A DNA stretch of 64,000 nt from Candidatus Neomicrothrix sp. Its GTDB lineage: Bacteria > Actinomycetota > Acidimicrobiia > Acidimicrobiales > Aldehydirespiratoraceae. The notes under the pieces were generated by a model. The model saw nothing but the letters and a program-made list of their open reading frames with translations, was not told the origin of the DNA and did not search any database. The DNA lies in assembly GCA_017852795.1 (NCBI GenBank), contig JAFMKU010000001.1, positions 43,127-107,126 of the forward strand, given 5' to 3'. The stretch's first letter is position 1, and every line of letters starts with the position of its first letter. Made by a program: the position numbers and the translations under genes. This document shows positions 15,388 to 57,035 of the stretch, one piece after another.

Positions 15388-15399
15388 GCAACGACTCCC

Positions 15400-18239: not shown

Positions 18240-18318
18240 ACCCAGTTCGGTACGCAATTCGGTCCAGTTTCTTCTGGTGCAACCACGCCACATCGGTGGC
18301 CCGTTAGACTCCGCCTCT

Positions 18319-21044: not shown

Positions 21045-23233
21045 TGCTTGCCGGTCTCGCCGGCCTCAATTGCTTCCAGCACGGTCATGGCGATATCGGC
21101 AACCCGAACTTCGTCTTCTTCTTTGCCCGCAGCCTTCACACCGTCATCCATCATGATGTAACAGAACGGACAAGCGGTTGCGACCCGCGAAGCGCCGGTT
21201 GCGATCAACTCTTTGGCTCGAACGTCGTTGACTTTGTCCCCGACGGTTTCTTCCATCCACATGCGAGCACCACCGGCACCACAACACATTCCCTTGGTGC
21301 CGTTTCGTTCGGCTTCGACAAGCTGAATGCCACCGAGGCTTCCGAGCACCTTGCGGGGCGCCATGTAGACGTCGTTGTGCCGACCGAGATAGCAGCTGTC
21401 GTGGTAGACGACCCGCTCGTCAAGTTCGGCATTGCTGAGGTCGAGCCGTCCCTGATCAACCAGCCATTCAAGGAACTGGCTGTGGTGGACAACCTCGTAG
21501 TGGCCTCCAAGCTGCGGGTACTCGTTGGCCAGCGTGTTGAAGCAGTGGGGGCACTGGGTGACGATCTTCTTGACCCCCATGGCGTTGAGCGTTTCGACGT
21601 TCTGGCTGGCCAGCATCTGGAACAGGTATTCGTTGCCAGAACGACGGGCCGAGTCGCCGGTGCAGTTCTCTGAAGGCCCAAGGATGGCGAACTCGACGCC
21701 GGCCCGCTGCATCAACTTGGCCATGGCCCGGGTCACCTTCTTGTTCTTGTCGTCGAACGATCCGGCACAGCCGACCCAGTAGAGGTATTCCGCTTCGAAG
21801 GGGTCTCCACCGTCGATGACGTTGATCCCGTCGAGGTCTTTGGCCCAGTCGCCTCGTTCGCTCTGGCTCATCGCCCACGGGTTCGCGGAGTTCTCCATGG
21901 CCCGGAACGCCTGGCCCAATTCGGAGGGGAAATCGCTTTCCATCAAGGTGAGGTAGCGCCGCATATCGAGGATCTTGTCGAGGATCTCAATGTTGACCGG
22001 ACAGATTTCGTCGCAGGCTTTACAGGACGTGCAACTCCAGACTTCGTCCTGAGAGATGCGATCGAACATCCAGTTGGCGGGCACGGTGATTTCGTCGTCG
22101 ACGCCGATTGGTGGCGAAACGGCGGGGCTACCGGTTCGGGCCATGACCTCACCGGTCTTGAGCACGATCTCCCGAGGGTCGAGAGGCTTGCCGGTGGCGT
22201 GAGCCGGACACACCGAGGTGCAGCGTCCACACATCGTGCAGGCGTCGGTGTCGAGCAGCTGCTTCCACGTGAAGTCCTCGATGACGCTGGCCCCGAACGT
22301 CTCGAGTTCGGTGGCACCGTTGACCAGATCCGGCATCGGCTTCATCGCACCCTTGGGCCGGTCACGATCCTTGAGATACATGTTCAGCGGTGAGGTCAAC
22401 ATGTGGCGAAGCATGGTGGTGGGCAGGATCACCAGGAAAGCGATGAAGCTCACGACGTGGGCAATCCACCAGAACTGGTGCCAGCCGGCGACGGAACTTC
22501 CCCCGTCCACCAAGGTGGCCAGCGGGTACCCCACGAAGCTCCACTTCTCGAACTCGGGATTGCCTTGTTCGGCGATGCGGAACGCTTCCGCGGCGAACCC
22601 GGTCACCGAGATCGCGAGGAACACACCCAGGATCACCGCGTGTTCGGGTTTTGACTTGATCCGGATGCGGTACGGGCGCCAGCTCCACGGACCGTACCGT
22701 CGAACGATGGCCCAGATAATGCCAATCAGAAAGATCAGCCCGGCCCCATCACCAATGGCTGCGTAGGCCCGGTAGACGTCGCCGTGAAGGAACTTGATGT
22801 CTTCGGGAACCTGATGGTTGATTTCGAGGACGGTAGTGACCCCAAGCAGGATCAAGAACCCGAAGTAGATCATGGAGTGCATGATCCCGGCACCCGGTTC
22901 GCGCATCAGCGTCTGCATGTAGACGCCAGCCCGGAAGTCGGCGCTGCGACGTTTGACGTTGCGTAGCGTGGTCCGCCGGTTGTCGGGTCGGCCACGTTCC
23001 CAGTTCTTTACCCGGTACGAGAACATCCAAGCTCCGTACACGAGGATCACGGGAACCACGGTGTAAAAGGCGAGTTTCACCGCCGGTGGGATGTTGTGAA
23101 AGACCTCTCGCGAGACAGTCGATTCGTCGTGCCAATCGGTGATGAAGGGCAAAACGTACGATCCGAAGGTGAAGAGTGCGATCCCCACCCCCAGAACCCG
23201 AACAAGATGGTGGGGTTTGAGGCGCGTTTTCAT
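21041..23233 (-). CDS. Fused membrane (NarI/DsrM-like) plus 2x[4Fe-4S] plus CCG-domain reductase (HdrD/GlpC/DsrK-like)
   Basis: ORF 21041..23275; ATG 23233 preferred (MKTRLKPHHL). About 5-6 N-terminal TM helices with conserved His; CTMCGRCTSVCP and CTSCKACDEICP ferredoxin motifs; CCG domains (ENCTGDSARR, degenerate; GMCCGAGG, intact). Confidence 0.85.
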   Translation of the reverse strand: MKTRLKPHHLVRVLGVGIALFTFGSYVLPFITDWHDESTVSREVFHNIPPAVKLAFYTVVPVILVYGAWMFSYRVKNWERGRPDNRRTTLRNVKRRSADFRAGVYMQTLMREPGAGIMHSMIYFGFLILLGVTTVLEINHQVPEDIKFLHGDVYRAYAAIGDGAGLIFLIGIIWAIVRRYGPWSWRPYRIRIKSKPEHAVILGVFLAISVTGFAAEAFRIAEQGNPEFEKWSFVGYPLATLVDGGSSVAGWHQFWWIAHVVSFIAFLVILPTTMLRHMLTSPLNMYLKDRDRPKGAMKPMPDLVNGATELETFGASVIEDFTWKQLLDTDACTMCGRCTSVCPAHATGKPLDPREIVLKTGEVMARTGSPAVSPPIGVDDEITVPANWMFDRISQDEVWSCTSCKACDEICPVNIEILDKILDMRRYLTLMESDFPSELGQAFRAMENSANPWAMSQSERGDWAKDLDGINVIDGGDPFEAEYLYWVGCAGSFDDKNKKVTRAMAKLMQRAGVEFAILGPSENCTGDSARRSGNEYLFQMLASQNVETLNAMGVKKIVTQCPHCFNTLANEYPQLGGHYEVVHHSQFLEWLVDQGRLDLSNAELDERVVYHDSCYLGRHNDVYMAPRKVLGSLGGIQLVEAERNGTKGMCCGAGGARMWMEETVGDKVNDVRAKELIATGASRVATACPFCYIMMDDGVKAAGKEEDEVRVADIAMTVLEAIEAGETGKQ

Positions 23234-23362
23234 GGCGGTGCCGAATCTAGTCGGCTTGGGGATTGGGGCGCGCAATCAGGCTCCAACGTTGTTGCCGGCA
23301 AGCCCCTCGAGCGAGGTGTTGCAGCTTCATACAGGCGAAACACTGCGGTAATCCTCGGGTCC

Positions 23363-40567: not shown

Positions 40568-40576
40568 AACCTAAGG

Positions 40577-40649
40577 TGGTCGGGACCGGCGTCGATCCGG
40601 TGACCTACCGCTTTTCAGGCGGCCGCTCTGCCAACTGAGCTACCCGACC
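40577..40649 (-). tRNA. tRNA-Phe (anticodon GAA)
   Basis: Reverse complement: GGTCGGG TA GCTC AGTTGGCA GAGC G GCCGC CTGAAAA GCGGT AGGTC ACCGG ATCGACG CCGGT CCCGACC A. Unusual T-loop (A at position 54). Confidence 0.88.
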
Positions 40650-40682
40650 TCTTGTGACATCTCTGCGAAAGAGATGCTGTTG

Positions 40683-40757
40683 CGGTCCTGACGGGATTTG
40701 AACCCGCGGCCTCCACCTTGACAGGGTGGCGATCACTCCAAACTGATCTACAGGACC
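40683..40757 (-). tRNA. tRNA-Asp (anticodon GTC)
   Basis: Acceptor GGTCCTG/CAGGACC, anticodon stem CCACC/GGTGG with loop CTGTCAA, T arm GCGGG-TTCAAAT-CCCGT. Confidence 0.92.
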
Positions 40758-40861
40758 TCTCGCCCGGCGAACCGGGTGAAGGCAAAACGGTAGGGCTGCA
40801 TCGGTCAGATGGCAACCCGCCCGTGATGGTTCCTTCATCGACGGCCTTGCGGTGCCGATGT

Positions 40862-40937
40862 TGGCACCCCCTACGGGATTCGAACCCGTGTTACCGGCGT
40901 GAAAGGCCGGCGTCCTGGGCCGCTGGACGAAGGGGGC
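40862..40937 (-). tRNA. tRNA-Glu (anticodon TTC), CCA encoded
   Basis: Acceptor GCCCCCT/AGGGGGT, anticodon stem CCGGC/GCCGG with loop CTTTCAC, T arm ACGGG-TTCGAAT-CCCGT, 3' GCCA. Confidence 0.92.
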
Positions 40938-40963
40938 GGGGTTCCCGAAGGAACCGAGGAAAA

Positions 40964-40990
40964 TGTATAGGGGAATCATTTCCGGTCCAA
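40964..40990 (-). promoter_or_regulatory. Candidate promoter of the tRNA Glu-Asp-Phe operon
   Basis: Minus strand: TTGGAC (40990-40985), 15 nt, TATACA (40969-40964); alternatively 17 nt then TACATT. About 27 nt upstream of the tRNA-Glu 5' end. Confidence 0.4.
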
Positions 40991-41046
40991 CATCTTCCAC
41001 GCGGATCATCGGGAGCGGACGCACACCAATCGAGCAGCGAACGAGG

Positions 41047-41565
41047 CTACTGAGGATTGGTTCGGTGCTGATCGAGTCCTGCCGTTGAGGCCGAAACCAG
41101 CTGTTCAAGAAGCCAACCGGACCATTCGAACAGCTCGAACAGACCTCGTTGTTCGTCGTTGAGCTGTTCGATTTCGAGATGTTCCGTGGCGTCAATTTCC
41201 AGCCGTTGACCGAGCAGGATCCGAAGCGCGTTGATGCTCTGCATCCAGGCACTGACAGCCCCGTCGTCCAAACCGCCGTTGTCTGAGCTGGAGCGTTCAA
41301 GCCCGTCGATGACCAGATCCAGAGCGTCCAACCGTGATCGTTGCAGGTCGTTTCCGATCAGCTCCCGAAACTGCTCTTCGGCGGCTGGGTCGTTGGGGTG
41401 GGCGGCTGGCTTCAGCGGGTGCAGTGCCGGATCCTCATCGACGGTGACGATCTGACGGAGCTGGTCGAGTAGATGGTTGAGCATCTCTCGCTCGTGTTCA
41501 GCAAAGTTGACCACCACCTGACCCTGGTCCCAAACAAACCGGGGCTGAAACCGTTTGCGAGCCAT
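41047..41565 (-). CDS. DUF2017 domain protein (conserved ClpS neighbour in actinobacteria)
   Basis: ORF 41047..41592; ATG 41565 preferred ([10 protein letters not shown]). It shares one nt with the clpS stop (TGATG). Acidic helical protein. Confidence 0.75.
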   Translation of the reverse strand: MARKRFQPRFVWDQGQVVVNFAEHEREMLNHLLDQLRQIVTVDEDPALHPLKPAAHPNDPAAEEQFRELIGNDLQRSRLDALDLVIDGLERSSSDNGGLDDGAVSAWMQSINALRILLGQRLEIDATEHLEIEQLNDEQRGLFELFEWSGWLLEQLVSASTAGLDQHRTNPQ

Positions 41566-41852
41566 CAAGAATCCTGTTCCATGGTGGCCCACAGACCGTG
41601 TTCGTGAAGCCGGAACACATCCATCTCGGCTCGTTCACGAGCCCCGGAGGACACCACGGCCCGGCCTTCGACGTGGACTTCCATCATCAGCCGATGAGCT
41701 TTCTCTTCGGAGAAACCGAAGAGTTTGCGAAAGACGAACGTCACGTACGACATCAAATTGACCGGATCGTCCCAGACCAGCACTTTCCACGGGCGATCCA
41801 ACGCCGACTCGGTCCCGGTGGATTGGTCAGGGGTGGCAACCGGCGCGGTCAT
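41565..41852 (-). CDS. clpS: ATP-dependent Clp protease adaptor ClpS
   Basis: 95 aa. [47 protein letters not shown]. Confidence 0.9.
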
Positions 41853-42760
41853 GACGCAGCGCGGGTTCGGTGAAGGTGCTCAGAGGTCCAGACCAGTCGC
41901 ACGATGGAGATCCAGCACAGCGAAGCCAACGTGAGATGGATCCCAACCAGCAGCACCGGAACCCCGGCGAAATACTGCCAGTAACCGACCATGCCTTGGA
42001 TCAGCAGCAGCGTTGCGACCAAACCGGCTTGAGACCCTAAACGTTCAAGGTTGCGCTGACGAGCCTGGTGGGTGGTGAACAACACCAGCACCAACAGCGA
42101 GATCGCCGTCAAGCTGTGGACTCGGGTCACGTCACGAATCTGAAACGGCAAACGGGCCGCCACGGTGGGGTCGTCGCTACCAGAATGCGGGCCGGTTCCG
42201 GTGACGATGGTTCCTGTCACCAGCAGAACCGCACCGAGCGCACCAACGAAACGGGTCAAGAACCGCAGTCGGTTCGACTCGATGGCCGCAGGCGGCGCTT
42301 CGTTCCCGTCGGGTTGGAGGCGAGCCCGTTCGATCAACACCACCGCGTTCCACAGCAGCACCATGGAAAGGAGGAAATGGCCCATCGTGAAACGCGGATC
42401 GAGATCGGTTTTGACCAGCAACGCACCCAGAAGGATCTGGGCCAACACCCCGACGACAAGACCGAGTGACCAGCGAACGAGATCAGGTCGACGAGGGCGA
42501 CGGCGCAACGAACCCAGCACCGCGATGACCACCGTCGCCGTCACTACCCCGGTAAACATTCGGTTCACGAACTCGATCAGCGCGTGGTATTCGAGATCGG
42601 GAACGACTTGATCCTGCTCGCAGGTCGGCCAATCCGAGCAGCCCAAACCCGATCCGGTGAGGCGCACAGCACCACCGGTGACCACGATGACGGTCAGCGA
42701 CCAGAGCGACCACCGGGCAAATTGAACGTAGCGTTCGGGGGAGATCCCGCGGCGAAACAT
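41849..42760 (-). CDS. ctaA: Heme A synthase (COX15/CtaA)
   Basis: 303 aa, about 8 TM helices. [18 protein letters not shown] Cys pair and conserved His in TM helices (HALIEF, GHFLLS, HSLTA, IHLTLA). ATGA overlap into clpS. Confidence 0.88.
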
Positions 42761-42804: not shown

Positions 42805-42819
42805 TAACCTGACGAGGTG
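42805..42819 (+). promoter_or_regulatory. Candidate -10 for a leaderless ctaB transcript
   Basis: TAACCT (42805-42810), 6 nt, then GTG 42817. No SD. Confidence 0.5.
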
Positions 42820-43713
42820 ACCGCTTCATCCCACAGCTCGACGCGGCCGCGATTGCTCGCTTTCGTCGCGTTGATGAAGCCGAGAATCATCGAACTTCTG
42901 CTGGTCACCACCGTCCCGACGATGATCATTGCCGAAGGTGGGATCCCGTCGCTGTGGTTGATTGTCGCCACCGTGGTCGGAGGCACGCTGGCTGCTGGCG
43001 GTGCCCATGCCTTCAACATGTACATCGATCGTGACATCGATCGACTGATGGAACGCACCAAAGGCCGACCGTTGGTCACCGGTGAAGTCAGCCCCCGGGA
43101 AGCGATCATCTTTGCCTTTGCCGTCGAAATTCTGGCGTTTGTCTGGCTCTGGGTTCTGGTGAACCTGCTGTCTGCGGTGTTGGCCATTTCGGCGACCCTG
43201 TTCTACGTCTTCGTCTACAGCCTTTGGCTGAAGCGTTCATCGACCAGCAACATCGTGATCGGCGGCGCGGCGGGCGCGGTTCCGGTCCTGGTCGGCTGGT
43301 CAGCGGTCACCAACGAACTGGACTGGCCGCCGGTCGTGTTGTTCGCCATCATCTTCTACTGGACCCCGCCGCACTTCTGGGCGTTGGCTATTCGTTACCG
43401 AGACGATTACGAAGCCGCCGAGGTGCCGATGCTTCCGGTGGTGCGATCGCTCAAGACCACCGCAACCAGAATCGTCCTCTATTCGGTGCTGCTTTGGGGG
43501 TTGACGCTGGTTTTCGCCCCGGTCGCTGACATGGGGGTGCTGTATGTGGCGGCCGCGGTCGTGCTCGGTGGAGTGTTTCTCGCCCTCGCGGTTCGGGTGT
43601 ATCGCGACCCTCGTCCGCAGCAAGCGATGAAGCTCTTCGGGTGGTCCATTACCTACGTGACGTTGTTGTTCGCGGCGATGGCCGTCGACGTGATCGTTCG
43701 TAACGGCATCTAA
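42817..43713 (+). CDS. ctaB: Heme O synthase (protoheme IX farnesyltransferase)
   Basis: 298 aa. LMKPRIIELLL, NMYIDRDIDRLMERTKGRPL, LKRSSTSNIVIGGAAGAVP, FYWTPPHFWAL. Confidence 0.92.
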   Translation: MTASSHSSTRPRLLAFVALMKPRIIELLLVTTVPTMIIAEGGIPSLWLIVATVVGGTLAAGGAHAFNMYIDRDIDRLMERTKGRPLVTGEVSPREAIIFAFAVEILAFVWLWVLVNLLSAVLAISATLFYVFVYSLWLKRSSTSNIVIGGAAGAVPVLVGWSAVTNELDWPPVVLFAIIFYWTPPHFWALAIRYRDDYEAAEVPMLPVVRSLKTTATRIVLYSVLLWGLTLVFAPVADMGVLYVAAAVVLGGVFLALAVRVYRDPRPQQAMKLFGWSITYVTLLFAAMAVDVIVRNGI

Positions 43714-43894: not shown

Positions 43895-45520
43895 ATGACG
43901 ATGACCGAGTCACCGCCTCAGGGGGCGGCAGAAGCGAACGACGGAGCCGCGAACGCCGCAAAAGGTCTTTACCTGTGGCTCTCGACGAGCGACAACAAGG
44001 TGATCGCACGCATTTGGTTGACGACCGCCTCGTTGTTGATGGCGGCCGGTCTGGCCCTTGGGGTCGCGGTTTCGGCGGAACGTTTGGATCCTGACAATGT
44101 CGGAATCTTTGGTGGAGTGAACGCGTACTTCCAGATGTGGGGGCTGTACCGGTTTGGGATGGTTCTGCTGGTTGCCATTCCTCTGCTGCTGGGACTCGCG
44201 ATCGCGGTGGTTCCGGGGCAGGTCGGAAGCCGTGAGATTGCGTTCCCCCGGGCGGCCTTGGCTGCGGCATGGGGTTACGTGCTGGGAGCGGGGATCGTTG
44301 TCGCCGCGGTGCTGGCCGGTGGCGGTTGGGGCGCGATTGACGGTGTGACCACCGGAGAAGCCGATGCCATGGCTTTGACCCTGACTGGCACGGGGCTGGT
44401 CATGCTCTCGATCATCATCGGTTCGATCTGCGTGTTGACCACCGTGATCTCACTGCGTACCCCCGGAATGAACCTGATGCGGGTACCGCTGTTCGCCTGG
44501 TCGATGCTGGTCGCGGCAACGGTGTGGGTGTTGACCCTGCCGGTCGCGATCGCCAACATCGTGGTGATCTACGTCGATCTTCGGGGTGGGCCGCTGGTGT
44601 TCGGTGAACCCGAAGGTTCCACCATGATCTACGACCAGTTGGCCTGGTTGTTCGAACAACCCCAGATCTACTCGATTGCGATTCCGGCGCTCGGCGTGTT
44701 CGGGTCGGTAGTGCCGGTGGTGGCCAAAGGCCGTCAGGTCAGCCACCCGGCGATGATGGCGCTTCTGGGGTTGGCCGGGGTTCTTTCGGTCGGCGGTTGG
44801 AGCCAGCCGATCCTTGACGGCGATCACCGTGACCTTCTGGTGTACGTGGCGTTCGGTTTGGCCGCAGTGCTGCCGGCCTTGGCTTACCTCGGTGGAAACG
44901 CAGCAACGTTGAAAGCTGGCGAAGCACCGGTTGGCGTCCCGCCGATGCATCTGGTCGGTGCACTCGGAGCGGGCCTGCTGTTCCTCGCGGCCACCGCGGC
45001 GGGAGCTGCTCGGGTTGTTGACCCGTTCGACTTGATCGGAACCACCGCTGACACTGGCGTGATGAACTTGGCCCTGGCGGCGGCCCTGCTTGGTGGAGTA
45101 ACCGGCCTGTTCTTCTGGTCACCGGTGGTGTGGGGACGACTGTTGCCGTCCGGGTCGATGACGCTGGTGGCGTTGTTGTTGCTCGGCGGCGGCCTGCTGG
45201 TCGGGCTCAGCGACGTGGTTGCCGGGTTCGCAGACGCTCCCGACGTGATGCTCGCTGAGGAAGGCGGGCAGTTGATCGATGTCATGGTGTTGGTGTCGCT
45301 GGCTGGCGCGGCCCTGATGGCTCTCGGCGGCCTTGGCCTGTTGAGTTCACTGGTTGGTGCCGTGCGTAACGAGACTTCGGCCGTCACCGACCCGTGGGGT
45401 GGCCAGACACTGGAATGGACCACCTCAGAGGTCTGGGAAGCCAACAAGGTCACGTCTGAAGCACCATTGCTGGACTTGGCTCGGCTCTCTTCGGAGGGTG
45501 ACGATGGAGGTGAGGCCTGA
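43895..45520 (+). CDS. Heme-copper oxidase subunit I paralogue lacking all canonical heme/CuB ligands
   Basis: 541 aa, about 12 TM helices, colinear with CtaD (WLSTSDNKVIARIW, IAFPR, LRTPGMNLMRVPLFAW, DPWGGQTLEW). The ligand positions read Y, Q, Q, P, A, A instead of His. GGAGG SD at 43878. Confidence 0.8.
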   Translation: MTMTESPPQGAAEANDGAANAAKGLYLWLSTSDNKVIARIWLTTASLLMAAGLALGVAVSAERLDPDNVGIFGGVNAYFQMWGLYRFGMVLLVAIPLLLGLAIAVVPGQVGSREIAFPRAALAAAWGYVLGAGIVVAAVLAGGGWGAIDGVTTGEADAMALTLTGTGLVMLSIIIGSICVLTTVISLRTPGMNLMRVPLFAWSMLVAATVWVLTLPVAIANIVVIYVDLRGGPLVFGEPEGSTMIYDQLAWLFEQPQIYSIAIPALGVFGSVVPVVAKGRQVSHPAMMALLGLAGVLSVGGWSQPILDGDHRDLLVYVAFGLAAVLPALAYLGGNAATLKAGEAPVGVPPMHLVGALGAGLLFLAATAAGAARVVDPFDLIGTTADTGVMNLALAAALLGGVTGLFFWSPVVWGRLLPSGSMTLVALLLLGGGLLVGLSDVVAGFADAPDVMLAEEGGQLIDVMVLVSLAGAALMALGGLGLLSSLVGAVRNETSAVTDPWGGQTLEWTTSEVWEANKVTSEAPLLDLARLSSEGDDGGEA

Positions 45521-46107
45521 TGACTGCAACAACCGGACTTCCCGCAGCTGAACTACGACGGCCCCGCACGGTCGTCGTCGGGACCATGTTTGGTTCTGCC
45601 GCGGCGTTGATGACCTTCTTTGGTTTGTTGGCGCTGTACCTCAACGCTCGCAGCGATGCCCGGATCGAAGGCACCGAATGGTTCCCGGAAGGGGTGGTTG
45701 AACTAGGCCCGTCAGGGTTTGTGTTCTGGACCTTGATCCTCTCGACGTTCACGGTTCGGTGGGCGGTTCAGGCCATCGGTAACGAGGATCGGCGCAACGC
45801 CTACGTGGCCATGGCCCTCACCGGGTTGTTCGGGGCTGCCGTGTTCAACCAGATGTGGTTCATCCTCAACGACACCGGCTTTGCCCTCGACGGCAGCACC
45901 GCCGAGTTGCTGTTCTTTGTCCTTAACGGCACGTTCATCGTCTTTTTGATCCTTGCCGTGATCTTCTTGGCCCTCACCACGTTGCGGGCCCTGTTCGGTC
46001 AGTTCGGTCCGCGTCAGGACGATGGGGTCGCTTCGGCGGCGCTGTTCTGGCATGTGGTGTCCTTCATGTACTGGGTCACCTGGATCGCCGTCTACGTCAC
46101 CAAGTAG
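45520..46107 (+). CDS. Oxidase subunit III-like membrane protein
   Basis: 195 aa; TGATG overlap with the upstream gene. C-terminus ALFWHVVSFMYWVTWIAVYV parallels CtaE GLYWHFVDVVWIFIFTVIYL. The TGFHGxHV motif is absent. Confidence 0.75.
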   Translation: MTATTGLPAAELRRPRTVVVGTMFGSAAALMTFFGLLALYLNARSDARIEGTEWFPEGVVELGPSGFVFWTLILSTFTVRWAVQAIGNEDRRNAYVAMALTGLFGAAVFNQMWFILNDTGFALDGSTAELLFFVLNGTFIVFLILAVIFLALTTLRALFGQFGPRQDDGVASAALFWHVVSFMYWVTWIAVYVTK

Positions 46108-46114
46108 GGGAAGC

Positions 46115-46900
46115 ATGTTCACTACGGGTTTCAAATTCTTCTTCGGTCTCGCCATGGCCCTCGCCGCGGCTGCCATTGCCTACGGGTATTCCACTGGTGG
46201 TGAGCACGTCGGACCGCTGACGCTGGGATGGAAAGGCGGCGTTGGCGAACACGTCGGCTACCTCGTTTTGATCGGCCTCGGGCTTGCTTCGGCCGGTCTC
46301 GGTGGCCTTCTGGTGGCAATGCGGGACGCCGATCCGGCCGCCCAAGCGCATTACCTCGGAGTTGAGACGTTGGCTCCGGCGGCTTCAACCACCGGCAGCA
46401 TGTGGCCGGTAGCGGGTGCGTTCGGGGCGGCAACCATGACCATTGGCCTCGTCGTGCATTCTGCGGTGTTCGTTCTGGGTCTGGTCATCGTGAGCTTGGT
46501 AGCGCTCGAATGGACCATGGATGCCTGGGCTGATCGAGCCACCGGAGACCCAGACGCCAACCGGTCGCTGCGGGATCGGATCATGGCCCCCATCGAAATC
46601 CCGTTGGCTGGTGTCGCGATCGTTGGTGTCTTTGTGCTGGCAGTAAGCCGGATCCTGCTCAACGCCAGCGTCAACGGCGCTCTGGTGTGGGCGACGCTGA
46701 TCGCCGTAGTGATCTTTGGTCTCGGCACGTTGATGGCGAACCGACCCCACATCAGCCGCAACCTGCTGGCGGGTCTGGCGCTCACCGCCGGTGTGGCTGT
46801 CCTCGCCGGCGGCATTGTCGCCGCGGTAGACGGAACCCGCGAGTTCCACCATCACGAAGTCGACCATGAAACCCCCACCCATAGTGAGACCGGTGAGTGA
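46115..46900 (+). CDS. Polytopic membrane protein, actinobacterial subunit-IV-like N-terminal half, His-rich tail
   Basis: ORF 46022..46900; ATG 46115 preferred (MFTTGFKFFFGL), 7 nt after the upstream stop. About 7 hydrophobic segments by eye. The SMWP...LEW hairpin resembles the CtaD C-terminal extension. Tail: REFHHHEVDHETPTHSETGE. Confidence 0.65.
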   Translation: MFTTGFKFFFGLAMALAAAAIAYGYSTGGEHVGPLTLGWKGGVGEHVGYLVLIGLGLASAGLGGLLVAMRDADPAAQAHYLGVETLAPAASTTGSMWPVAGAFGAATMTIGLVVHSAVFVLGLVIVSLVALEWTMDAWADRATGDPDANRSLRDRIMAPIEIPLAGVAIVGVFVLAVSRILLNASVNGALVWATLIAVVIFGLGTLMANRPHISRNLLAGLALTAGVAVLAGGIVAAVDGTREFHHHEVDHETPTHSETGE

Positions 46901-48144
46901 TGAAGCCTGTGAGTGAAATGTCCAAGCACCCCCGTCGTTATCTATTCGGATTGGTCCTGCTGCTCGGCCTGTTGCTGAGCGGCTGTGCCAGCGACGCCGA
47001 ACTGAACACGCTCGACCCGAAGGGGGAGACGGCCCGTCAGATCGACGATCTGCTCGACCCGGTGTTGGCAATCGCCGGTGTCATTTTGGTTTTGGTCGTG
47101 GGCGGGGTTGTCTACATGTCGCTTCGCAGCCGGGTCAGCAACTACGACTCCGATGAGTTCCCGGCTCAGACCACCCACAACAACACTTTGGAAATCGGTT
47201 GGACCATTGGCCCAGCGATCATCATGGTGATTGTGGCGGTGTTGACGATCACCACCCATTTGGTGGTCAACGACACCAAAGCCAATGCGGTTGAGGTCAG
47301 CGTGGACGGTGCCACGACCAGCTGGGAACCAAAAGTTGTGGTGGTTGGCCAACAGTGGTGGTGGGAGTTCCGCTACTACTTCAGCGAAGACGTTGACGCA
47401 GAAATGCTCGGCGATCCGAACAACCTCCCCCCGGCTGACATCGTCACTGCCGGTCAGATGATTATCCCCGCGGGGGAAGAAGTTGAACTCATCGTTACCT
47501 CCCGTGACGTCATCCATTCGTTCTGGATTCCGGCGCTGAACGGCAAACGCGACGCTCGGCCCGGGTACTTCGCCAAATGGAAGCTCTCCGCCGACGATCC
47601 TGGCGTCTACTTCGGTCAGTGCACCGAGTTCTGTGGACTTTCCCATTCACGGATGCGGATGCAGGTCGTGGCTATGGACGACGCAGGCTTCCAACAGTGG
47701 ATTGACGAACAACGAGAAGTTCCTGCACTTCCCGAAGCCAACGAGGACGACGCGGTTTCCCGCGGTGCGGTGGCTTTCGCCGGAAACTGCACCTCCTGCC
47801 ATCTGGTGGAAGGGGTAAACAGCGACAGCTACTCCGGGGCTGCAGTGGAATCGGGCGCGGCACCGAACCTCACCCATTTCGCGAGCCGGAGCACCTTCGC
47901 TGGCGGAATCCTCAATACCTACAACCCCGACGGCAGCTTCAACCGCGACGACCTTTCTGAATGGTTGCGAAACCCTGAAGTCGTCAAGGCCAACGCGGCG
48001 AACAACCTTCCCGACGGTGTGCTTCCTCGAGGGATGCCGAACCTGGGATTGAACGAACGTACGATCAGCGATCTTGTCGCCTACCTCGAAACCCTCGGCT
48101 CCAAGCCGTCGGCCGAGGTTCTCGCGGCAACGGAGGTGGAGTGA
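46897..48144 (+). CDS. ctaC: Cytochrome c oxidase subunit II with fused C-terminal cytochrome c domain (caa3 type), lipobox
   Basis: Possible starts GTG 46897, ATG 46900 or ATG 46918. Lipobox LLLSGC. CuA site HSFWIP...CTEFCGLSHSRM. Heme c motif CTSCH with a distal RGMPN. Confidence 0.92.
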   Translation: MMKPVSEMSKHPRRYLFGLVLLLGLLLSGCASDAELNTLDPKGETARQIDDLLDPVLAIAGVILVLVVGGVVYMSLRSRVSNYDSDEFPAQTTHNNTLEIGWTIGPAIIMVIVAVLTITTHLVVNDTKANAVEVSVDGATTSWEPKVVVVGQQWWWEFRYYFSEDVDAEMLGDPNNLPPADIVTAGQMIIPAGEEVELIVTSRDVIHSFWIPALNGKRDARPGYFAKWKLSADDPGVYFGQCTEFCGLSHSRMRMQVVAMDDAGFQQWIDEQREVPALPEANEDDAVSRGAVAFAGNCTSCHLVEGVNSDSYSGAAVESGAAPNLTHFASRSTFAGGILNTYNPDGSFNRDDLSEWLRNPEVVKANAANNLPDGVLPRGMPNLGLNERTISDLVAYLETLGSKPSAEVLAATEVE

Positions 48145-48145
48145 C

Positions 48146-50173
48146 ATGGCGATCACCGAAGAACCCCTAGCCCTTACCAGTGGTGAGACGTTCGCCGAGC
48201 GACCGCTCGGTGTTCTGACCCGCCCCCAGCCCAAAGGCACCTGGCGAGACTGGCTGAGTTCTGTTGACCACAAGAAGATCGGGATCATGTATGGCGTTGC
48301 CGCCATGTTCTTCTTCTTGGTTGGTGGTGCCGAAGCTCTGCTGATCCGGACCCAGCTGGCGTTCCCTGATCAGGGATTCTTGAGCGCCGAGGTCTACAAC
48401 CAGATCTTCACCATGCACGGCGTGACGATGATCTTCTTGTTCGTGATGCCGCTGGCTGCGGCCTTCGCCAACTATCTGATCCCGTTGCAGATCGGCGCCC
48501 GTGACGTGGCGTTCCCGAGACTCAACGCCCTTTCTTTCTGGGTCTGGTTGTCGGGTGCAATCTTCCTCAACACCAGCTGGATTGTTGGCGGTGGCGGGGC
48601 CGACTGTGGATGGTTCTGCTACGCGCCGAACAGTGGTGTGACCTTCTCGCCGACCAATGGCGTCGACTTCTACGCCATTGGTTTGTTGATCGCAGGTATC
48701 GCTTCGCTGGTTTCGGCAGTGAACCTGATCGTCACCGTGCTCAACATGCGGGCACCGGGTATGACCCTGTTCCGGATGCCGGTGCTGACCTGGATGCTGC
48801 TGGTCACCCAGTTCCTGCTGGCTTTCGCCCTGCCGGTCATCACGGTGGCGCTCTTCCTGCTGATTTTCGATCGCCTGTTCGACTCGCAGTTCTTCGATCC
48901 GGCCGCCGGCGCAGACCCGTTGCTCTGGCAGCATCTGTTCTGGATCTTCGGGCATCCCGAGGTGTACATCATCATCCTTCCGAGTTTCGGGATTATCTCG
49001 GAGGTCATCCCGGCGTTCAGCCGTAAACCGATTTTCGGGTACACCTTCATGGTGTTCTCGGGTATCGCCATCGGCTTCATGGGCTGGGGTGTCTGGGCTC
49101 ACCACATGTTCGTTTCCGGGATCGGGCCGATCTCGGTTGCCGCGTTCTCGCTGGCGACGATGTTCATTGCGGTCCCGACCGGTGTGAAGATCCTCAACTG
49201 GCTCGCCACTATGTGGGGCGGACAGTTGCGCTTCACGACCGCCATGTTGTTCGCGGTGGGAACGGTGGCCATGTTTACCATCGGTGGCCTTTCCGGCGTC
49301 ACCCACTCGTTGGCCCCCGCCGACACGCAACAGACCGATACCTACTACATCGTGGCCCATTTCCATTACGTGATCTTCGGTGGCGGTGTGCTCGGCCTGT
49401 TCGCGGGGATCTACTTCTGGTGGCCGAAAGTCTTCGGTCATTTCCTGAACGAAAAGCGGGGCCGCCTGCACTTCTGGTCGATGCTGGTTGGCTTCAACCT
49501 GACCTTCGGCCCGATGCACGTCCTCGGTTTGCAGGGCATGAGCCGCCGCATTGACACCTACTCGGCCGGGTTCGGTTTCGAGTTCTGGAACTTGGTCTCG
49601 ACGATCGGTTCATACCTGCTTGGCCTGTCGGTGTTGTACTTCCTCTACAACGTCTGGCGTTCGAAGAAAGAAGCAGTCAACCTGCCGGCCCCGGGTCCCG
49701 ATCCGTGGGATGCCCGAAGCCTAGAATGGTCGGTCCCTTCGCCGACTCCGGAGCACAACTTCGACGTCATCCCGGTGATCGAATCTCAGGACGACTGGTG
49801 GTTCCGCAAGTACAGCATCGAAGACGATGGTTCCGTGGTTCGGGTCGCCAGCGTCGAGGAAGCAGCGCAGAAGGGTGACGCGACCGGTGTGCATCTGCCA
49901 TCGCCGTCTTTCTGGCCGCTGGTCCTGGCCGTTGGTCTGCCGCTGATCGGGTACGGCCTGATCTTCAACCTCTGGTTGTGTGTGATCGGTGGGCTGCTTA
50001 CCGGTGGCGCCATGTACGCCTGGGCGCTTGAACCGGTGGATGACCCTGACGCTGGTCACGGGCACGACGACCACGGTCATGACGACCACGGTGACGATGA
50101 CCACGGTGATGACGGCCACGGTGATGACGACGACCCGGTCGCGGTAGCGGCCGACTCAGAAGGAGAAGCGTGA
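48146..50173 (+). CDS. ctaD: Cytochrome c oxidase subunit I with C-terminal two-helix extension and His/Asp-rich tail
   Basis: ORF 48074..50173; ATG 48146 preferred, 1 nt after the ctaC stop. All ligands present (FTMHG, WIFGHPEVY, WAHHMF, AHFHYV). Extension HLPSPSFWPLVLAVG...AWALEP, then GHGHDDHGHDDHGDDDHGDDGHGDDDD. Confidence 0.95.
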   Translation: MAITEEPLALTSGETFAERPLGVLTRPQPKGTWRDWLSSVDHKKIGIMYGVAAMFFFLVGGAEALLIRTQLAFPDQGFLSAEVYNQIFTMHGVTMIFLFVMPLAAAFANYLIPLQIGARDVAFPRLNALSFWVWLSGAIFLNTSWIVGGGGADCGWFCYAPNSGVTFSPTNGVDFYAIGLLIAGIASLVSAVNLIVTVLNMRAPGMTLFRMPVLTWMLLVTQFLLAFALPVITVALFLLIFDRLFDSQFFDPAAGADPLLWQHLFWIFGHPEVYIIILPSFGIISEVIPAFSRKPIFGYTFMVFSGIAIGFMGWGVWAHHMFVSGIGPISVAAFSLATMFIAVPTGVKILNWLATMWGGQLRFTTAMLFAVGTVAMFTIGGLSGVTHSLAPADTQQTDTYYIVAHFHYVIFGGGVLGLFAGIYFWWPKVFGHFLNEKRGRLHFWSMLVGFNLTFGPMHVLGLQGMSRRIDTYSAGFGFEFWNLVSTIGSYLLGLSVLYFLYNVWRSKKEAVNLPAPGPDPWDARSLEWSVPSPTPEHNFDVIPVIESQDDWWFRKYSIEDDGSVVRVASVEEAAQKGDATGVHLPSPSFWPLVLAVGLPLIGYGLIFNLWLCVIGGLLTGGAMYAWALEPVDDPDAGHGHDDHGHDDHGDDDHGDDGHGDDDDPVAVAADSEGEA

Positions 50174-50793
50174 TGACTTCGATGACGGCTGAGGCAGCCG
50201 CGGTGTCCCACGATCACGATCCGCACGCCACCAACACGGGTATCTCCAACACCAAGTTGGCCATGTGGTTGTTCCTGTCGACCGAGTGCCTGCTCTTCGG
50301 TGGGCTGATTTCGACCTACCTGCTCTACAAAACTCGGGGCAACGGTCAGGTTCTGCCGACCGACATCTTCGACATCATGTTCACCTCGGTGAGCTCGTTC
50401 GTGCTGCTGGCCAGCTCCCTCACGATGGTGCTGGCGCTCTCGGCGGCGGTCCGTGGAGACATGCACCGGACTCGGGTCTGGTTGATGGTCACCGCCTTGC
50501 TGGGAGCGGTCTTTATCGGTGGGCAGGTTTACGAGTTCACCAGCTTCTACTACGAAGGCTTGGGCTACACCACCAACCCGGCAGCCTCGGCGTTCTACAC
50601 CCTTACCGGGTTCCACGGAATCCACGTCAGCTTGGGTCTGCTGATGCTGATGTCGCTCTTTGTGGCAGCCGGGCAGGGCAAGCTCACCGCCAAGAACCAT
50701 GAAACCATCGAGATTGTCGGCCTGTACTGGCATTTCGTGGACGTGGTCTGGATCTTCATCTTCACTGTCATCTATCTGATCCCGGCCGAGTAG
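50170..50793 (+). CDS. ctaE: Cytochrome c oxidase subunit III
   Basis: ATGA overlap with ctaD. FYTLTGFHGIHVSLG and GLYWHFVDVVWIFIF. Confidence 0.92.
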   Translation: MMTSMTAEAAAVSHDHDPHATNTGISNTKLAMWLFLSTECLLFGGLISTYLLYKTRGNGQVLPTDIFDIMFTSVSSFVLLASSLTMVLALSAAVRGDMHRTRVWLMVTALLGAVFIGGQVYEFTSFYYEGLGYTTNPAASAFYTLTGFHGIHVSLGLLMLMSLFVAAGQGKLTAKNHETIEIVGLYWHFVDVVWIFIFTVIYLIPAE

Positions 50794-50799
50794 GACATC

Positions 50800-51117
50800 A
50801 TGAGCGAACAAGTTGCCCACGCCGAAAGCCACACTCACGAGCACCCATCAGACTTTGAGTACGTCAAGGTCGCGTTGGTGCTGGCCGCCATCACTGCGGT
50901 TGAAGTGTTCACCTACTTTGAGTCGGTGCTCGACTGGGGGGCGTTCCTCATCCCGTCGTTGCTGATCATGATGGTCGTCAAGTTCTGGCTGGTAGCCCGG
51001 ATGTTTATGCATCTCAAGAACGACGAACCCGTCTTGGGCCGTTTTTTCGCTGGGGGGCTGGCGTTGGCGACCGTGGTGTACATCATCGCGTTGCTCGCCT
51101 TTAACTTCTGGAGTTGA
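50800..51117 (+). CDS. ctaF: Cytochrome c oxidase subunit IV (Bacillus/caa3 type)
   Basis: 105 aa, 3 TM helices. VKFWLVARMFMHLKND motif typical of prokaryotic COX4. Confidence 0.8.
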   Translation: MSEQVAHAESHTHEHPSDFEYVKVALVLAAITAVEVFTYFESVLDWGAFLIPSLLIMMVVKFWLVARMFMHLKNDEPVLGRFFAGGLALATVVYIIALLAFNFWS

Positions 51118-52049
51118 TGATGCCTGCGGCCCTCGTTGCGGCCAACGCCTGGCAGTACGAGTTTCATCCCGAGGTCTGGCTGCTCATAGCCGGGCTGGTG
51201 GCGATGGCGGTCTACTCCGTGAAGTACATCGGACCGTTGGTTGTTACCGACGGCAGCCCAGTGGTAACCCGTGGTCAAAAATGGGGGTTTGCGGCGGGGA
51301 TCGCGCTGCTGTGGCTCGCCGCCGACTGGCCGATGCACGACATCGCCGAACAGCACCTCTATGCGGTGCACATGATCCAGCACCTGCTGATCTCGTTCGT
51401 GGTGCCACCGCTGTTGTTGCTGGCCATGCCGGCCTGGCTTGCTCGCCTCATCATCTTGGAAGATGGCGTTCCTCAGCGAATCCTGCGCTTCATGGCCCGA
51501 CCGTTGTTTGCCGGTGTGCTGTTCAACCTTTTGCAGGTGCTCACCCACTGGGGGGCCGTCGTTGATTTGTCGGTGGGCAACGGGGCGTTCCATTACGTGC
51601 TGCATCTGATGGTTTTCGTATCCGCATTGTTGATGTGGTTCCCGGTGCTGGGTCCGCTGCCAGAAATGCAGATGACCGAACCTGGCAAGATGCTGTACCT
51701 CTTCTTGATGTCGATCATCCCAACCGTCCCGGCTGGCTGGCTGACGTTTGCCGACGGCATCGTTTACAAGAGCTACGACCACCCCGACCCGCTGTGGGGG
51801 ATTTCGCCTCGCCAAGATCAGCAGGCGGCCGGCGCGGTGATGAAAGTGGTTGGCGGGTTCTACCTGTGGATCCTGATCGCAATCCGGTTTTTTCGACTGG
51901 CTGGCGAGAATCGACGAGTCGATGAAGAAGCCCGCAAGGCTCGTCGTCGTCAGCAACTGACGTTCTCAGAAGTCGAGCGTCAGTTTGCCGAAGCCGGAGA
52001 TCCGATCGTCGAACCACCGAGTGGCTCAACCGGAGGCCCGCAATCATGA
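51114..52049 (+). CDS. ctaG: Cytochrome c oxidase assembly factor CtaG (Caa3_CtaG family)
   Basis: ATGA overlap with ctaF. Polytopic. HMIQHLLISFVVPPLLLLA and HLMVFVSALLMWFPVLGP. Confidence 0.85.
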   Translation: MMMPAALVAANAWQYEFHPEVWLLIAGLVAMAVYSVKYIGPLVVTDGSPVVTRGQKWGFAAGIALLWLAADWPMHDIAEQHLYAVHMIQHLLISFVVPPLLLLAMPAWLARLIILEDGVPQRILRFMARPLFAGVLFNLLQVLTHWGAVVDLSVGNGAFHYVLHLMVFVSALLMWFPVLGPLPEMQMTEPGKMLYLFLMSIIPTVPAGWLTFADGIVYKSYDHPDPLWGISPRQDQQAAGAVMKVVGGFYLWILIAIRFFRLAGENRRVDEEARKARRRQQLTFSEVERQFAEAGDPIVEPPSGSTGGPQS

Positions 52050-55440: not shown

Positions 55441-56409
55441 TCAGGGAATCACCAAGCGCAGAACGGGTCGGACGAAAAAGTCCCAGTCGTTTACTGCTTC
55501 GACAAAGACGAAGAAGATCAACCAGAGCGAAGTCACCGAGCGGCGGCGCAGCGTGTCGCGGGGATGGTCCGATCGCCAAGCCAGCAGGAGCAAACCCGAC
55601 ACGGCGAAGAGACTCAGAACCCCGAGGCGTTGCGGGGTGGCGTCGCTGATCCAGCCGCTGATCGTCGCCTGGAACCCGAGGAACTGGTCAACCATCAGGT
55701 TGCCGGCGTTGATGTCGTCCTGCAGTCGGATTTCCCAGATGCCGTAGTCGATCAGGTAGATACCCGCGGCGATCAGGATCAGCCCGGAAAGCGGTTCGAC
55801 GTAGGGAAGAATTCGACGCAACCCGGACGCCACCCCCGATTTGGCCCAGGCCAGACTGACGGTGAGGAACACCACCACTGCGCCCATCCCTAATCCGTAG
55901 GCGATAAAGCTGCCGACGCCGTTGGCCACGCCGTCAGTGGTGAACGTGTTGTTGACGGCCTGAAGGAACAACCCGAGCGTGCAACTCAACGACACGACGG
56001 CGTAGGAAACCCCGAACAAGAACACCGACCCAACCCCTCGCCCCGAACCGGCCCGAGCCAGGCCAAGTACTGGGAGCCGGATCGAACGACCCAACAGGAT
56101 CGCCACCCCTACCGGTACTAGCAGCACCCCGATCACCACGGTGATCAGCCCGACGTGCTCAACGACGGTCGCCTGGTTCACGAACCAGGAAATCAGCAGG
56201 CCGACGCTGCCAAAGACTGCGACGAAACCCAGCGTCAAGATGGTGCCGACCCAGAGCCCTCGAGTGACCGCCCGGAGTCGTGAACGGGGGGCGGTTTCGG
56301 TGCCGAGGAAGAAACCAAGGTAGGTGGGCAGCATGGCAAACCCGCAGGGGTTGACCGCAGCGAGCAGGCCGACCCCAAACGGGAACGTGAACTGTTCAAT
56401 CCCACTCAC
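55441..56409 (-). CDS. ccdA: Cytochrome c biogenesis thiol-reductant transporter CcdA (DsbD-core family)
   Basis: ORF 55441..56580; GTG 56409 preferred, giving a GTGA overlap with the tlpA stop. Conserved Cys motifs AAVNPCGF and VVSLSCTLG. About 6-8 TM helices. Confidence 0.85.
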   Translation of the reverse strand: MSGIEQFTFPFGVGLLAAVNPCGFAMLPTYLGFFLGTETAPRSRLRAVTRGLWVGTILTLGFVAVFGSVGLLISWFVNQATVVEHVGLITVVIGVLLVPVGVAILLGRSIRLPVLGLARAGSGRGVGSVFLFGVSYAVVSLSCTLGLFLQAVNNTFTTDGVANGVGSFIAYGLGMGAVVVFLTVSLAWAKSGVASGLRRILPYVEPLSGLILIAAGIYLIDYGIWEIRLQDDINAGNLMVDQFLGFQATISGWISDATPQRLGVLSLFAVSGLLLLAWRSDHPRDTLRRRSVTSLWLIFFVFVEAVNDWDFFVRPVLRLVIP

Positions 56410-57035
56410 GAGTCGACCGCTTCGGGAGATACCAGCAGTTCGTCGATCATCGACCGAAGCGACGTTCGACTGAGCGCGCTTGATCGGACGGTTCGGATGA
56501 TTCCGTCGGCGTCGACCAGCACGGTTGTTGGCATGGCGTACCCGCCGAAGGCGGCAACGAGCGATGCTTGAGGATCCCAACCCAAGTCGTAGGTAACCCC
56601 GGTTTGCTCAACCAGGGTTTCGGCGTCGGAACGGCGAGGATCGTTTGAGATCCCGACAAAGGCAACGGTGTCATCGAGTGCCTCGAAAACGGCCTGAAAG
56701 TCTGGCATTTCGGCGACGCAGGCAGTGCAGCTCCGAGCGAAGAAGTTGATGACCAGTGGCCGCCCTCGGTAGTCGGCAAAGTTTGCCGTGCGACCATCAA
56801 AGGTGGTGAACGGCCGGTCGACGAGTTCGCCGACGGTCACGGCCGCGGAGCTCGGATCTGGTTCAGGGGTTCCCGAACCGAGACGCATGACGTCGTCGGA
56901 CCCGCCGCAGGCCGCGGCCAAGAACATCAACATCGTCAGCACGGCCCCGGCCAACGGCCGTGGTGGGCGCCGGAGTCTGGACTGAGAAGAGCGGAACGTG
57001 ATCACGGCTGGTCGCAACGTAGTCGTAGGGGGCAC
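56406..57035 (-). CDS. TlpA/ResA-family thiol-disulfide oxidoreductase lipoprotein
   Basis: Lipobox FLAAACGG. Thioredoxin-fold motif NFFARSCTACVAEMP. TACCGT lies 5 nt upstream of GTG 57035. Confidence 0.85.
   Translation of the reverse strand: MPPTTTLRPAVITFRSSQSRLRRPPRPLAGAVLTMLMFLAAACGGSDDVMRLGSGTPEPDPSSAAVTVGELVDRPFTTFDGRTANFADYRGRPLVINFFARSCTACVAEMPDFQAVFEALDDTVAFVGISNDPRRSDAETLVEQTGVTYDLGWDPQASLVAAFGGYAMPTTVLVDADGIIRTVRSSALSRTSLRSMIDELLVSPEAVDS

Follow-up and report, generated by a model that had tools for sequence, protein, structure and literature searches.

A conserved, apparently non-catalytic trio of oxidase subunit homologues within the caa3 oxidase locus of Acidimicrobiia

We analysed a stretch of 64,000 nucleotides (nt) from Candidatus Neomicrothrix sp. 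(assembly GCA_017852795.1, contig JAFMKU010000001.1; henceforth the window), which carries a Bacillus-like cta locus for a caa3-type cytochrome oxidase into which three additional genes, here called g1, g2 and g3 or collectively the trio, are placed between ctaB and ctaC (Table 1). A first-pass annotation, made from the sequence alone, had pointed to three extra, coupled genes at this place with ctaA divergent, and we found the open reading frames (ORFs) and junctions to be as it described. Specifically, g1 and g2 meet in TGATG (45518-45522), where one base is common to the g1 stop and the g2 start; the TAG of g2 is followed by a 7-nt gap (gggaagc, 46108-46114) and then by the ATG of g3 at 46115; and the TGA of g3 (46898-46900) overlaps the start of ctaC, which is either GTG 46897 or ATG 46900 (GTGATG, 46897-46902). 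The g1 ATG is preceded, at a distance of 12 nt, by GGAGGA, and the GC content at third codon positions (0.75, 0.79 and 0.69 in g1, g2 and g3) resembles that of the adjoining genes. The genes downstream of the trio encode a complete oxidase: profile searches matched COX2, COX2_TM and Cytochrom_C domains in CtaC, and ctaD, which encodes a genuine subunit I with all its ligands, most likely starts at ATG 48146 instead of TTG 48074.

The product of g1 is a homologue of subunit I that has lost its cofactor ligands. It matches Pfam COX1 well above the gathering score (120 bits vs. 34.8) and along nearly the whole profile (positions 2-434 of 436), while the genuine CtaD reaches 525 bits; it is colinear with the window CtaD (BLASTP, 25% identity, E 9e-35) and aligns to the CtaD of Mycobacterium smegmatis with an E-value of 1e-34 (phmmer). 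Its score against TIGR02891 (CtaD_CoxA) is only 194 bits where the cut-off is 671, and all other NCBIfam subunit-I models are also far under their cut-offs. The ligand columns were read independently three times, from the BLASTP alignment, from the phmmer alignment to M. smegmatis CtaD and from a MAFFT alignment that included 114 homologues, and the substitutions were identical throughout: out of six His ligands (two of the low-spin haem, one of the high-spin haem and three of CuB), g1 keeps none. The colinearity and all the ligand and channel replacements listed in the first-pass annotation were thereby reproduced, and, checked column by column, the ligand loss holds across the family (114 and 178 homologues; Table 1). 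The protein contains only three His residues (284, 311 and 352), all outside the hydropathy-defined hydrophobic cores, compared with 21 in CtaD; six ligand His are therefore impossible independently of any alignment. There is a single Cys.

What is conserved in g1 is of a different kind. Positions conserved in at least 97% of sequences are mainly Gly, Pro and Trp, together with loop motifs common to real CtaD (AFPR, R..GM.L...P.F.W and W..(H/Q)P), and the family-specific conserved residues are Gln255, Gln304, Asn221 and Trp211. Going by these alignments, this is the pattern expected of a preserved fold with abandoned chemistry, and the replacements look fixed, as opposed to the outcome of drift. 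Because the defining catalytic features are missing, g1 should not be filed as a functional oxidase subunit I.

The second gene encodes a homologue of subunit III. It matches Pfam COX3 with 39 bits (gathering score 23.8) over profile positions 86-255 of 258, aligned to helices 3-7, and has NGTFIVFL in place of the TGFHGxHV motif, in agreement with the earlier description of a subunit-III-like protein without that motif. The best NCBIfam model is NF050119 (aa3_CtaE_Actin), and since the score of 46.7 bits compares with a cut-off of 190, we regard g2 as a divergent member, not an equivalog, of actinobacterial CtaE. Its best solved relative is mycobacterial CtaE.

The third protein, g3, found no match in Pfam or NCBIfam profile searches. 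The first-pass annotation had noted a resemblance of its N-terminal half to CtaF, the actinobacterial subunit IV, and this finds some support among relatives: PF12270, the model for that subunit, is matched by 32 of 106 g3 relatives at E <= 0.01 over the N-terminal ~125 residues, and one relative exceeds the gathering score (31.1 vs. 26.9). An AlphaFold2 model built from the 106-sequence alignment has a predicted local distance difference test (pLDDT) score of 81 and seven transmembrane (TM) helices, matching the earlier count of about seven hydrophobic segments; an earlier model from 31 close homologues was poor (pLDDT 56) and was not used. The top two Foldseek hits of the model are CtaF chains of M. 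tuberculosis and Corynebacterium glutamicum (8hcr_H and 7q21_F), both weak (E 0.26-0.36, TM-score 0.33-0.34 normalised to the target). A search of the g3 profile against PDB sequences retrieved no CtaF chains and gave a marginal match to a COX3 N-terminus (7jro_c, E 0.069), which by itself does not show CtaF membership. A relationship between the N-terminal half of g3 and actinobacterial CtaF is supported, but only indirectly, by the Pfam matches in relatives and the weak Foldseek hits.

Another link between g3 and the genuine oxidase is a helical hairpin of the form SxWP...EW, equivalent to TM1-2 of COX3 and TM3-4 of CtaF. As had been proposed, g3 has it in common with the extension at the C-terminus of the genuine CtaD (91% probability and an E-value of 1e-6 by hhalign). 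In the window CtaD this C-terminus (49880-50173) forms a two-helix 'SFWP...' hairpin with a weak match to PF12270 (Cyt_c_ox_IV) at residues 603-653. We also considered whether g3 is a fusion of CtaF with subunit II or a copy of COX3, and rejected both, given that hhalign found no similarity between the g3 family and any of four others, namely CtaC (probability 0.8%), CtaE, the Bacillus-type CtaF and g2. No COX2-like gene is present in the trio, i.e., it comes without a dedicated subunit II. A subunit III of five helices needs a further hairpin to be complete, which the genuine enzyme carries as a fusion to CtaD and the trio as part of g3; because g3 supplies it, the trio adds up to one I/III/IV-like core without subunit II.

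Beyond its four CtaF-like N-terminal helices, g3 consists of three more helices and a short, acidic, His-rich tail of 19 residues (EFHHHEVDHETPTHSETGE). The motif GEREFxxH is conserved family-wide, mean column identity among 31 family members is 61%, and the family comprises 941 clusters at E <= 1e-3 in a representative library. The tail occupies the place of a cupredoxin domain found in relatives (see below) and is predicted to be extracytoplasmic on the basis of the positive-inside rule and of those cupredoxin fusions; a cupredoxin, which needs His, Cys, His and Met ligands, is absent from g3 of the window. The genuine CtaD also ends, after its hairpin, in a His/Asp-rich tail (GHGHDDHGHDDHGDDDHGDDGHGDDDD), so that both CtaD and g3 carry His-rich tails in this organism; the CtaD tail is predicted to be cytoplasmic and is not conserved in the single orthologue compared (from locus L084).

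Table 1 The cta locus, the residues of g1 at former ligand and channel positions, and elements of g3. Coordinates are those of the window.
Feature	Coordinates	Strand	Evidence or state in homologues
ctaA (haem A synthase)	41849-42760	minus, divergent	Pfam COX15-CtaA 87 bits
ctaB (haem O synthase)	42817-43713	plus	NF003349 408 bits; directly upstream of trio
g1 (CtaD-prime), COX1 homologue without cofactor ligands, 541 aa	43895-45520	plus	Pfam COX1 120 bits
g2 (CtaE-prime), five-helix COX3 homologue, 195 aa	45520-46107	plus	Pfam COX3 39 bits
g3, seven-helix membrane protein, 261 aa	46115-46900	plus	Start set from 258-269-aa orthologues
ctaC, subunit II with fused cytochrome c domain (caa3 type)	46897/46900-48144	plus	TIGR02866 177 bits, above cut-off
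ctaD, genuine subunit I, all ligands	48146-50173	plus	TIGR02891 690 bits, above cut-off; COX1 525 bits
ctaE	50170-50793	plus	COX3 73 bits
ctaF, Bacillus/caa3 type	50800-51117	plus	COX4_pro 36 bits
ctaG	51114-52049	plus	Caa3_CtaG 141 bits
g1 Tyr85, for the TM2 axial His of haem a	codon 44147-44149	plus	Tyr 101/114, His 8/114 homologues
g1 Gln255, for the first CuB His (WLFEQPQIY vs. WIFGHPEVY)	codon 44657-44659	plus	Gln 114/114 and 178/178 window-type homologues
g1 Gln304, for the second CuB His (GWSQP vs. VWAHH)	codon 44804-44806	plus	Gln 114/114 and 178/178 window-type homologues
g1 Pro305, for the third CuB His			Pro 98, Asp 15 among 114 homologues
g1 Gln, for the gating Glu			Gln 76, Ala 38 among 114 homologues
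g1, TM10 His pair: no His			Asn or Val in family
g1 Glu / Ala, for the D-channel Asp / Asn			Family columns Asn / Ala
g1 Tyr, for the K-channel Lys			Family column Ser/Thr/Val/Ala
g1 Asp / Val, for the Arg pair at the haem propionates			
g1, cross-link Tyr: retained			
g3 SxWP...EW helical hairpin, residues 92-136	46388-46522	plus	Equivalent of COX3 TM1-2 and CtaF TM3-4
g3 C-terminal acidic His-rich tail, 19 residues	46841-46897	plus	Tail classes in 106 homologues

We then looked at how widely the trio is distributed. In a scan of one genome per species, 184 stretches encode a relative, and titles were examined for the best 80 of these. All of the best 80 are metagenome-assembled genomes, and a cluster look-up likewise gave no names of cultured strains. 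With two exceptions, the titles read Acidimicrobiia/Acidimicrobiales or the broader Actinomycetota, with 'Ca. Microthrix' and 'Ca. Aldehydirespiratoraceae' among the lineages. Contigs L013 (CAXMSE010000038.1) and L075 (CAXMRH010000061.1), titled Gammaproteobacteria and Chthoniobacterales respectively, bear an Acidimicrobiia-type cta locus with the trio and are probably mis-binned. The gene order clpS(-) ctaA(-) ctaB g1 g2 g3 ctaC ctaD ctaE ctaF ctaG (serS) was found in 83/83 loci, the only departures being truncations at contig ends. Homologues reach down to about 35-45% identity, the ctaB-g1-g2-g3-ctaC-ctaD context is also present in divergent sister clades, and in the loci examined (the 83 and those of the divergent clades) the trio was never seen away from oxidase genes.

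Selection on these genes was estimated as the ratio of nonsynonymous to synonymous substitution rates (dN/dS; Nei-Gojobori) from close pairs only (dS 0.02-0.6, 3-9 pairs); values over all pairs were saturated (dS about 1) and inflated, and were discarded. For close pairs we obtained 0.18, 0.14 and 0.17 for g1, g2 and g3, compared with 0.14 for ctaC, 0.13 for ctaB, 0.14 for ctaG and 0.08 for ctaD. Purifying selection on the trio is comparable to that on ctaC, ctaG and ctaB. No internal stops occur in the ORFs called across the surveyed loci. With intact ORFs, fixed synteny and low dN/dS (0.14-0.18), these are maintained genes, not pseudogenes, as the first-pass annotation had held.

More distant homologues of g3 are longer (340-410 aa) and bear an additional C-terminal domain, and three types can be distinguished, all of them in the ctaB-g1-g2-g3-ctaC-ctaD context. 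In type A, this domain is an amicyanin-like cupredoxin with a complete type-1 copper site (...H...CxxHxxM; Pfam Cupredoxin_1 up to 5e-17), found in about 8-12 of the 106 sampled g3 relatives (e.g., L085:3622-4764, L089:7820-9397 and proteins P0246, P0391, P0413 and P0434). In type B, common in Ilumatobacteraceae-like contigs, a domain of ~150 residues aligns to the cupredoxin and is without copper ligands; it is present in about 57 of the 106 (e.g., L084:10001-11149), with a 'PYTLxVPGVEGASIEVVVP' motif and a pair of conserved Cys, and resembles a cupredoxin that has degenerated. Type C, the window type, has just the short acidic His-rich tail. One contig of the cupredoxin clade (L087:1606-1956, minus strand) additionally carries a separate cupredoxin gene (116 aa, PF13473) between g3 and ctaC on the opposite strand.

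The state of g1 differs between these clades as well. In the cupredoxin clade, 7/8 sequences retain the two His that ligate the low-spin haem axially (in TM2 'YTLHGE' and TM10 'QVHY'), while other residues stand in for all three His ligands of CuB and for the His of the high-spin haem, in agreement with the phmmer alignment to M. smegmatis CtaD. By contrast, none of the window-type g1 homologues aligned retains the low-spin haem His pair. The window is therefore the fully cofactor-free end of a series, since sister clades keep the low-spin haem His and the cupredoxin and window-type g1 comes with neither. Judged from its ligands only, the trio of the cupredoxin clade would bind one haem and one copper, and it may constitute a novel type of oxidase-derived module that combines haem with blue copper.

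Several comparisons bear on where the trio came from. In a rough neighbour-joining tree, all g1 types form one clade on a long branch apart from genuine CtaDs. The g2 proteins of every type score best with NF050119 and mycobacterial CtaE and barely with QoxC or CyoC, whereas the genuine CtaE prefers QoxC and CyoC. Similarly, g1 of the cupredoxin clade reaches 204 bits against mycobacterial CtaD vs. 161 against Bacillus subtilis QoxB, while the genuine CtaD hardly distinguishes between the two (555 vs. 552 bits), and the subunit IV of the trio is CtaF-like (g3) where that of the genuine enzyme belongs to COX4_pro. As a whole, these comparisons point to an aa3 oxidase of the actinobacterial type as the ancestor of the trio and speak against a tandem duplication of the neighbouring caa3 genes (ctaDEF). 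The suggested aa3-type ancestry, the cupredoxin on g3 of sister clades and the low-spin haem His in their g1 are new relative to the first-pass annotation.

Other genes of the window give some context. Directly downstream of ctaA lie ClpS and a DUF2017 protein (41047-41852, minus strand), whose pairing with the cta locus is kept in nearly all related loci, followed by a cluster of transfer RNA genes (40575-40937, minus strand; Phe-GAA, Asp-GTC and Glu-TTC); a 231-aa ORF at 40605-41300 (minus strand) overlaps the three of them and was rejected as spurious. A 744-aa membrane iron-sulfur protein (21041-23275, minus strand) unites two CCG domains and 4Fe-4S ferredoxin motifs with a domain like that of NarI (Nitrate_red_gam); it is similar to HdrD/DsrMK and could act as a reductase linked to quinone. 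At 55441-56580 (minus strand) we found a 379-aa membrane protein with no Pfam match at E 1e-5; the syntenic gene in the related locus L001 is recorded as DsbD_TM (CcdA-like), and the protein may be connected with how the cytochrome c domain of CtaC matures. A classic actinobacterial cell-division signalling cluster, comprising a PP2C phosphatase, FtsW/RodA, a penicillin-binding protein transpeptidase and a PknB-type kinase with four PASTA domains, occupies 14146-20388 (plus strand). The remaining genes are housekeeping, and bc-complex genes were not found in the window. A promoter and terminator scan of the region returned weak, scattered terminator-like consensus matches, none of which we took as functional, and was otherwise uninformative.

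Given these observations, we propose, with a probability of about one half, that the trio is a non-catalytic I'/III'/IV' structural partner of the active caa3 oxidase. According to this proposal, g1, g2 and g3 would assemble into a cofactor-free membrane complex of about 24 helices with the shape of an A-type oxidase core, which would be unable to carry out redox chemistry or to pump protons. It would be made together with the caa3 oxidase (CtaC/D/E/F) and in similar amounts; matched amounts are suggested by the overlapping stop and start codons shared with the structural subunits. Going by the genomic coupling, the complex may then dock to the caa3 oxidase as a pseudo-monomer or adaptor and stabilise or organise it within a larger respiratory assembly. 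In a more specific version, the adaptor would retain ancestral aa3 docking surfaces, e.g. towards the bcc complex, and leave the chemistry to caa3. Its history would be one of stepwise cofactor loss from an ancestral aa3 oxidase (CtaD/CtaE/CtaF), from low-spin haem plus blue copper, via a domain without copper ligands, to a His-rich tail. More speculatively, one could see the trio as a cofactor-stripped aa3 remnant that has become the obligate pseudo-oxidase half of a hetero-oligomeric assembly (for example a caa3-to-bcc adaptor), with the cupredoxin-clade relatives being new electron-transfer modules derived from haem-copper oxidases, equipped with one low-spin haem and a type-1 copper and devoid of an oxygen-reducing centre; we hold this combined picture to be possible but tentative.

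Several points weigh against the proposal of a structural partner. The g1 gene evolves about twice as fast as ctaD, which fits a scaffold but also any weaker constraint. The two Gln that invariably occupy the former CuB site, as well as the conserved GEREFxxH motif and the His-rich tail of g3, hint at more than packing. Operon membership fits an assembly factor too, as ctaG shares the operon. Finally, the aa3 ancestry is suggested by bit-score rankings and a neighbour-joining tree, not by a rooted phylogeny with reference oxidases. On the whole, the evidence favours a structural partner over an assembly platform or a conduit, and it weighs against the conduit.

The strongest competitor is an assembly platform, in which the trio would transiently hold haem A (from CtaA/CtaB) or copper and hand it to nascent CtaD/CtaC without being part of the mature enzyme. 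Its position immediately behind ctaB and ahead of ctaC, with the gene for the CuB factor CtaG in the same operon, would suit such a role, as would the predicted extracytoplasmic His-rich tail of g3, the conservation of GEREFxxH across the g3 family and the copper-binding-type cupredoxin that relatives bear at the position of the g3 tail. On the other hand, the former haem pockets are without axial His and offer no obvious means to hold haem A, and the copper site of the relatives is a type-1 (amicyanin-like CxxHxxM) electron-transfer site, which is not a typical chaperone site. To our knowledge, the oxidase assembly factors described so far (Surf1, Sco, PCuAC, CtaG and others) do not include a paralogue of a subunit, which also counts against this role. 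In a 2022 review, as far as a search by terms reaches into its text, neither a subunit-I-like factor nor Acidimicrobiia are named. The stop/start overlaps with structural subunits, moreover, suggest matched amounts, and we consider an assembly platform unlikely, if still the first alternative to a structural partner.

An autonomous ion or proton conduit or transporter, reusing the oxidase fold without redox chemistry, could draw on the approximately 24 conserved TM helices of the trio and on the polar residues conserved within the former active site (Gln255, Gln304, Asn221 and Tyr259). We nonetheless find it highly improbable: in the alignment with 114 homologues, non-titratable residues have taken the place of the D-channel Asp/Asn, of the K-channel Lys and of the gating Glu, the conserved positions show no chain of charged residues, and the trio keeps company with oxidase genes in all loci examined. 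The idea that the trio is still a redox protein, with non-canonical ligands (Tyr, Gln or Asn) for a haem or metal, would account for the high conservation of Tyr85 and Gln255/Gln304 exactly at former ligand positions, and sister clades do retain a bis-His haem site and a type-1 copper domain; but with three His outside the hydrophobic cores and one Cys in window g1, neither a subunit-II-like partner nor a cupredoxin in the window trio, and the haem-propionate Arg pair lost, we give it even less credence than the conduit. That the genes are decaying duplicates without function, as the loss of every catalytic residue and the faster evolution of g1 than of CtaD might suggest, is already contradicted by the invariant replacement residues, the intact ORFs in syntenic loci with relatives in 184 genome stretches, a dN/dS of about 0.15-0.18 and the 61% mean column identity of the g3 family.

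We compared the trio with known systems. The closest is the actinobacterial aa3 oxidase (CtaD/CtaE/CtaF) of the Mycobacterium and Corynebacterium bcc-aa3 supercomplexes (PDB 6adq, 8hcr and 7q21). Both have a subunit I with 12 TM helices and a subunit III with five, of the same two families, and the SxWP hairpin recurs in subunit IV, to whose family g3 probably belongs. Among solved structures, the core chains of this oxidase are those most closely related to g1 and g2, and they give g3 its top, but weak, structural hits. Unlike that enzyme, the trio is without ligands for haem a, haem a3 and CuB, without proton channels and without its own subunit II; g3 differs from CtaF in its three extra helices and, in relatives, in its cupredoxin C-terminus; and the genes of the trio adjoin one another inside a caa3 operon.

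In cytochrome bd oxidases, CydB, and CydA' of the archaeal cydAA', are haem-free paralogues of the catalytic subunit that share its fold and have a structural role. With a ligand-less paralogue beside a catalytic subunit, the trio resembles these haem-free subunits, which are its closest analogy. The fold and superfamily are unrelated, however, and in the bd enzymes the paralogue is firmly known to be one of the subunits, whereas here the association is a predicted one and a set of three subunits is duplicated. The sulfocyanin SoxE of the Sulfolobus SoxM complex is a membrane-anchored blue-copper carrier on an oxidase supercomplex. The cupredoxin-clade relatives, as distinct from the window, are like SoxE in that a type-1 copper domain is tethered by membrane helices and encoded with oxidase genes; unlike SoxE, g3 of the window has no cupredoxin, and the anchor is a CtaF-like seven-helix protein accompanied by dead subunits I and III. 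Within the COX1 superfamily, the nitric oxide reductase (NOR) families cNOR, qNOR, eNOR, bNOR, sNOR, gNOR and nNOR are metal- and haem-containing enzymes with altered active sites, one His being replaced by Asp in gNOR (PMC11214002). Like these, g1 differs from oxygen reductases in its active-site residues; unlike them, as they are described there (PMC11214002), it keeps no ligand His.

Neither Pfam nor NCBIfam has a model for the g1 subfamily or for g3, and the literature that we searched holds no description of a ligand-less subunit I family, although its coverage was incomplete and an earlier description is possible. As far as we know, and in the literature covered, those subunit-I families of haem-copper oxidases that have been described are treated as metal- and haem-containing enzymes. 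Judged from sequence comparison, the trio apparently represents a conserved, class-wide and undescribed non-catalytic branch of this superfamily. Current database names are 'cbb3-type cytochrome c oxidase subunit I' and 'hypothetical protein', and because such names are generic or misleading, metabolic reconstructions of the abundant marine, soil and sponge Acidimicrobiia may count a non-oxidase as an oxidase.

So far seen only in Acidimicrobiia-type loci, the trio would, as far as our searches reach, be the first branch of pseudo-enzymes among the haem-copper oxidases. It could show what such a scaffold does beyond chemistry, be it packing, the binding of lipids or partners, or the architecture of supercomplexes. 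The series from haem plus blue copper, through a ligand-less domain, to a bare tail would then be a stepwise record of a respiratory enzyme becoming a structural protein.

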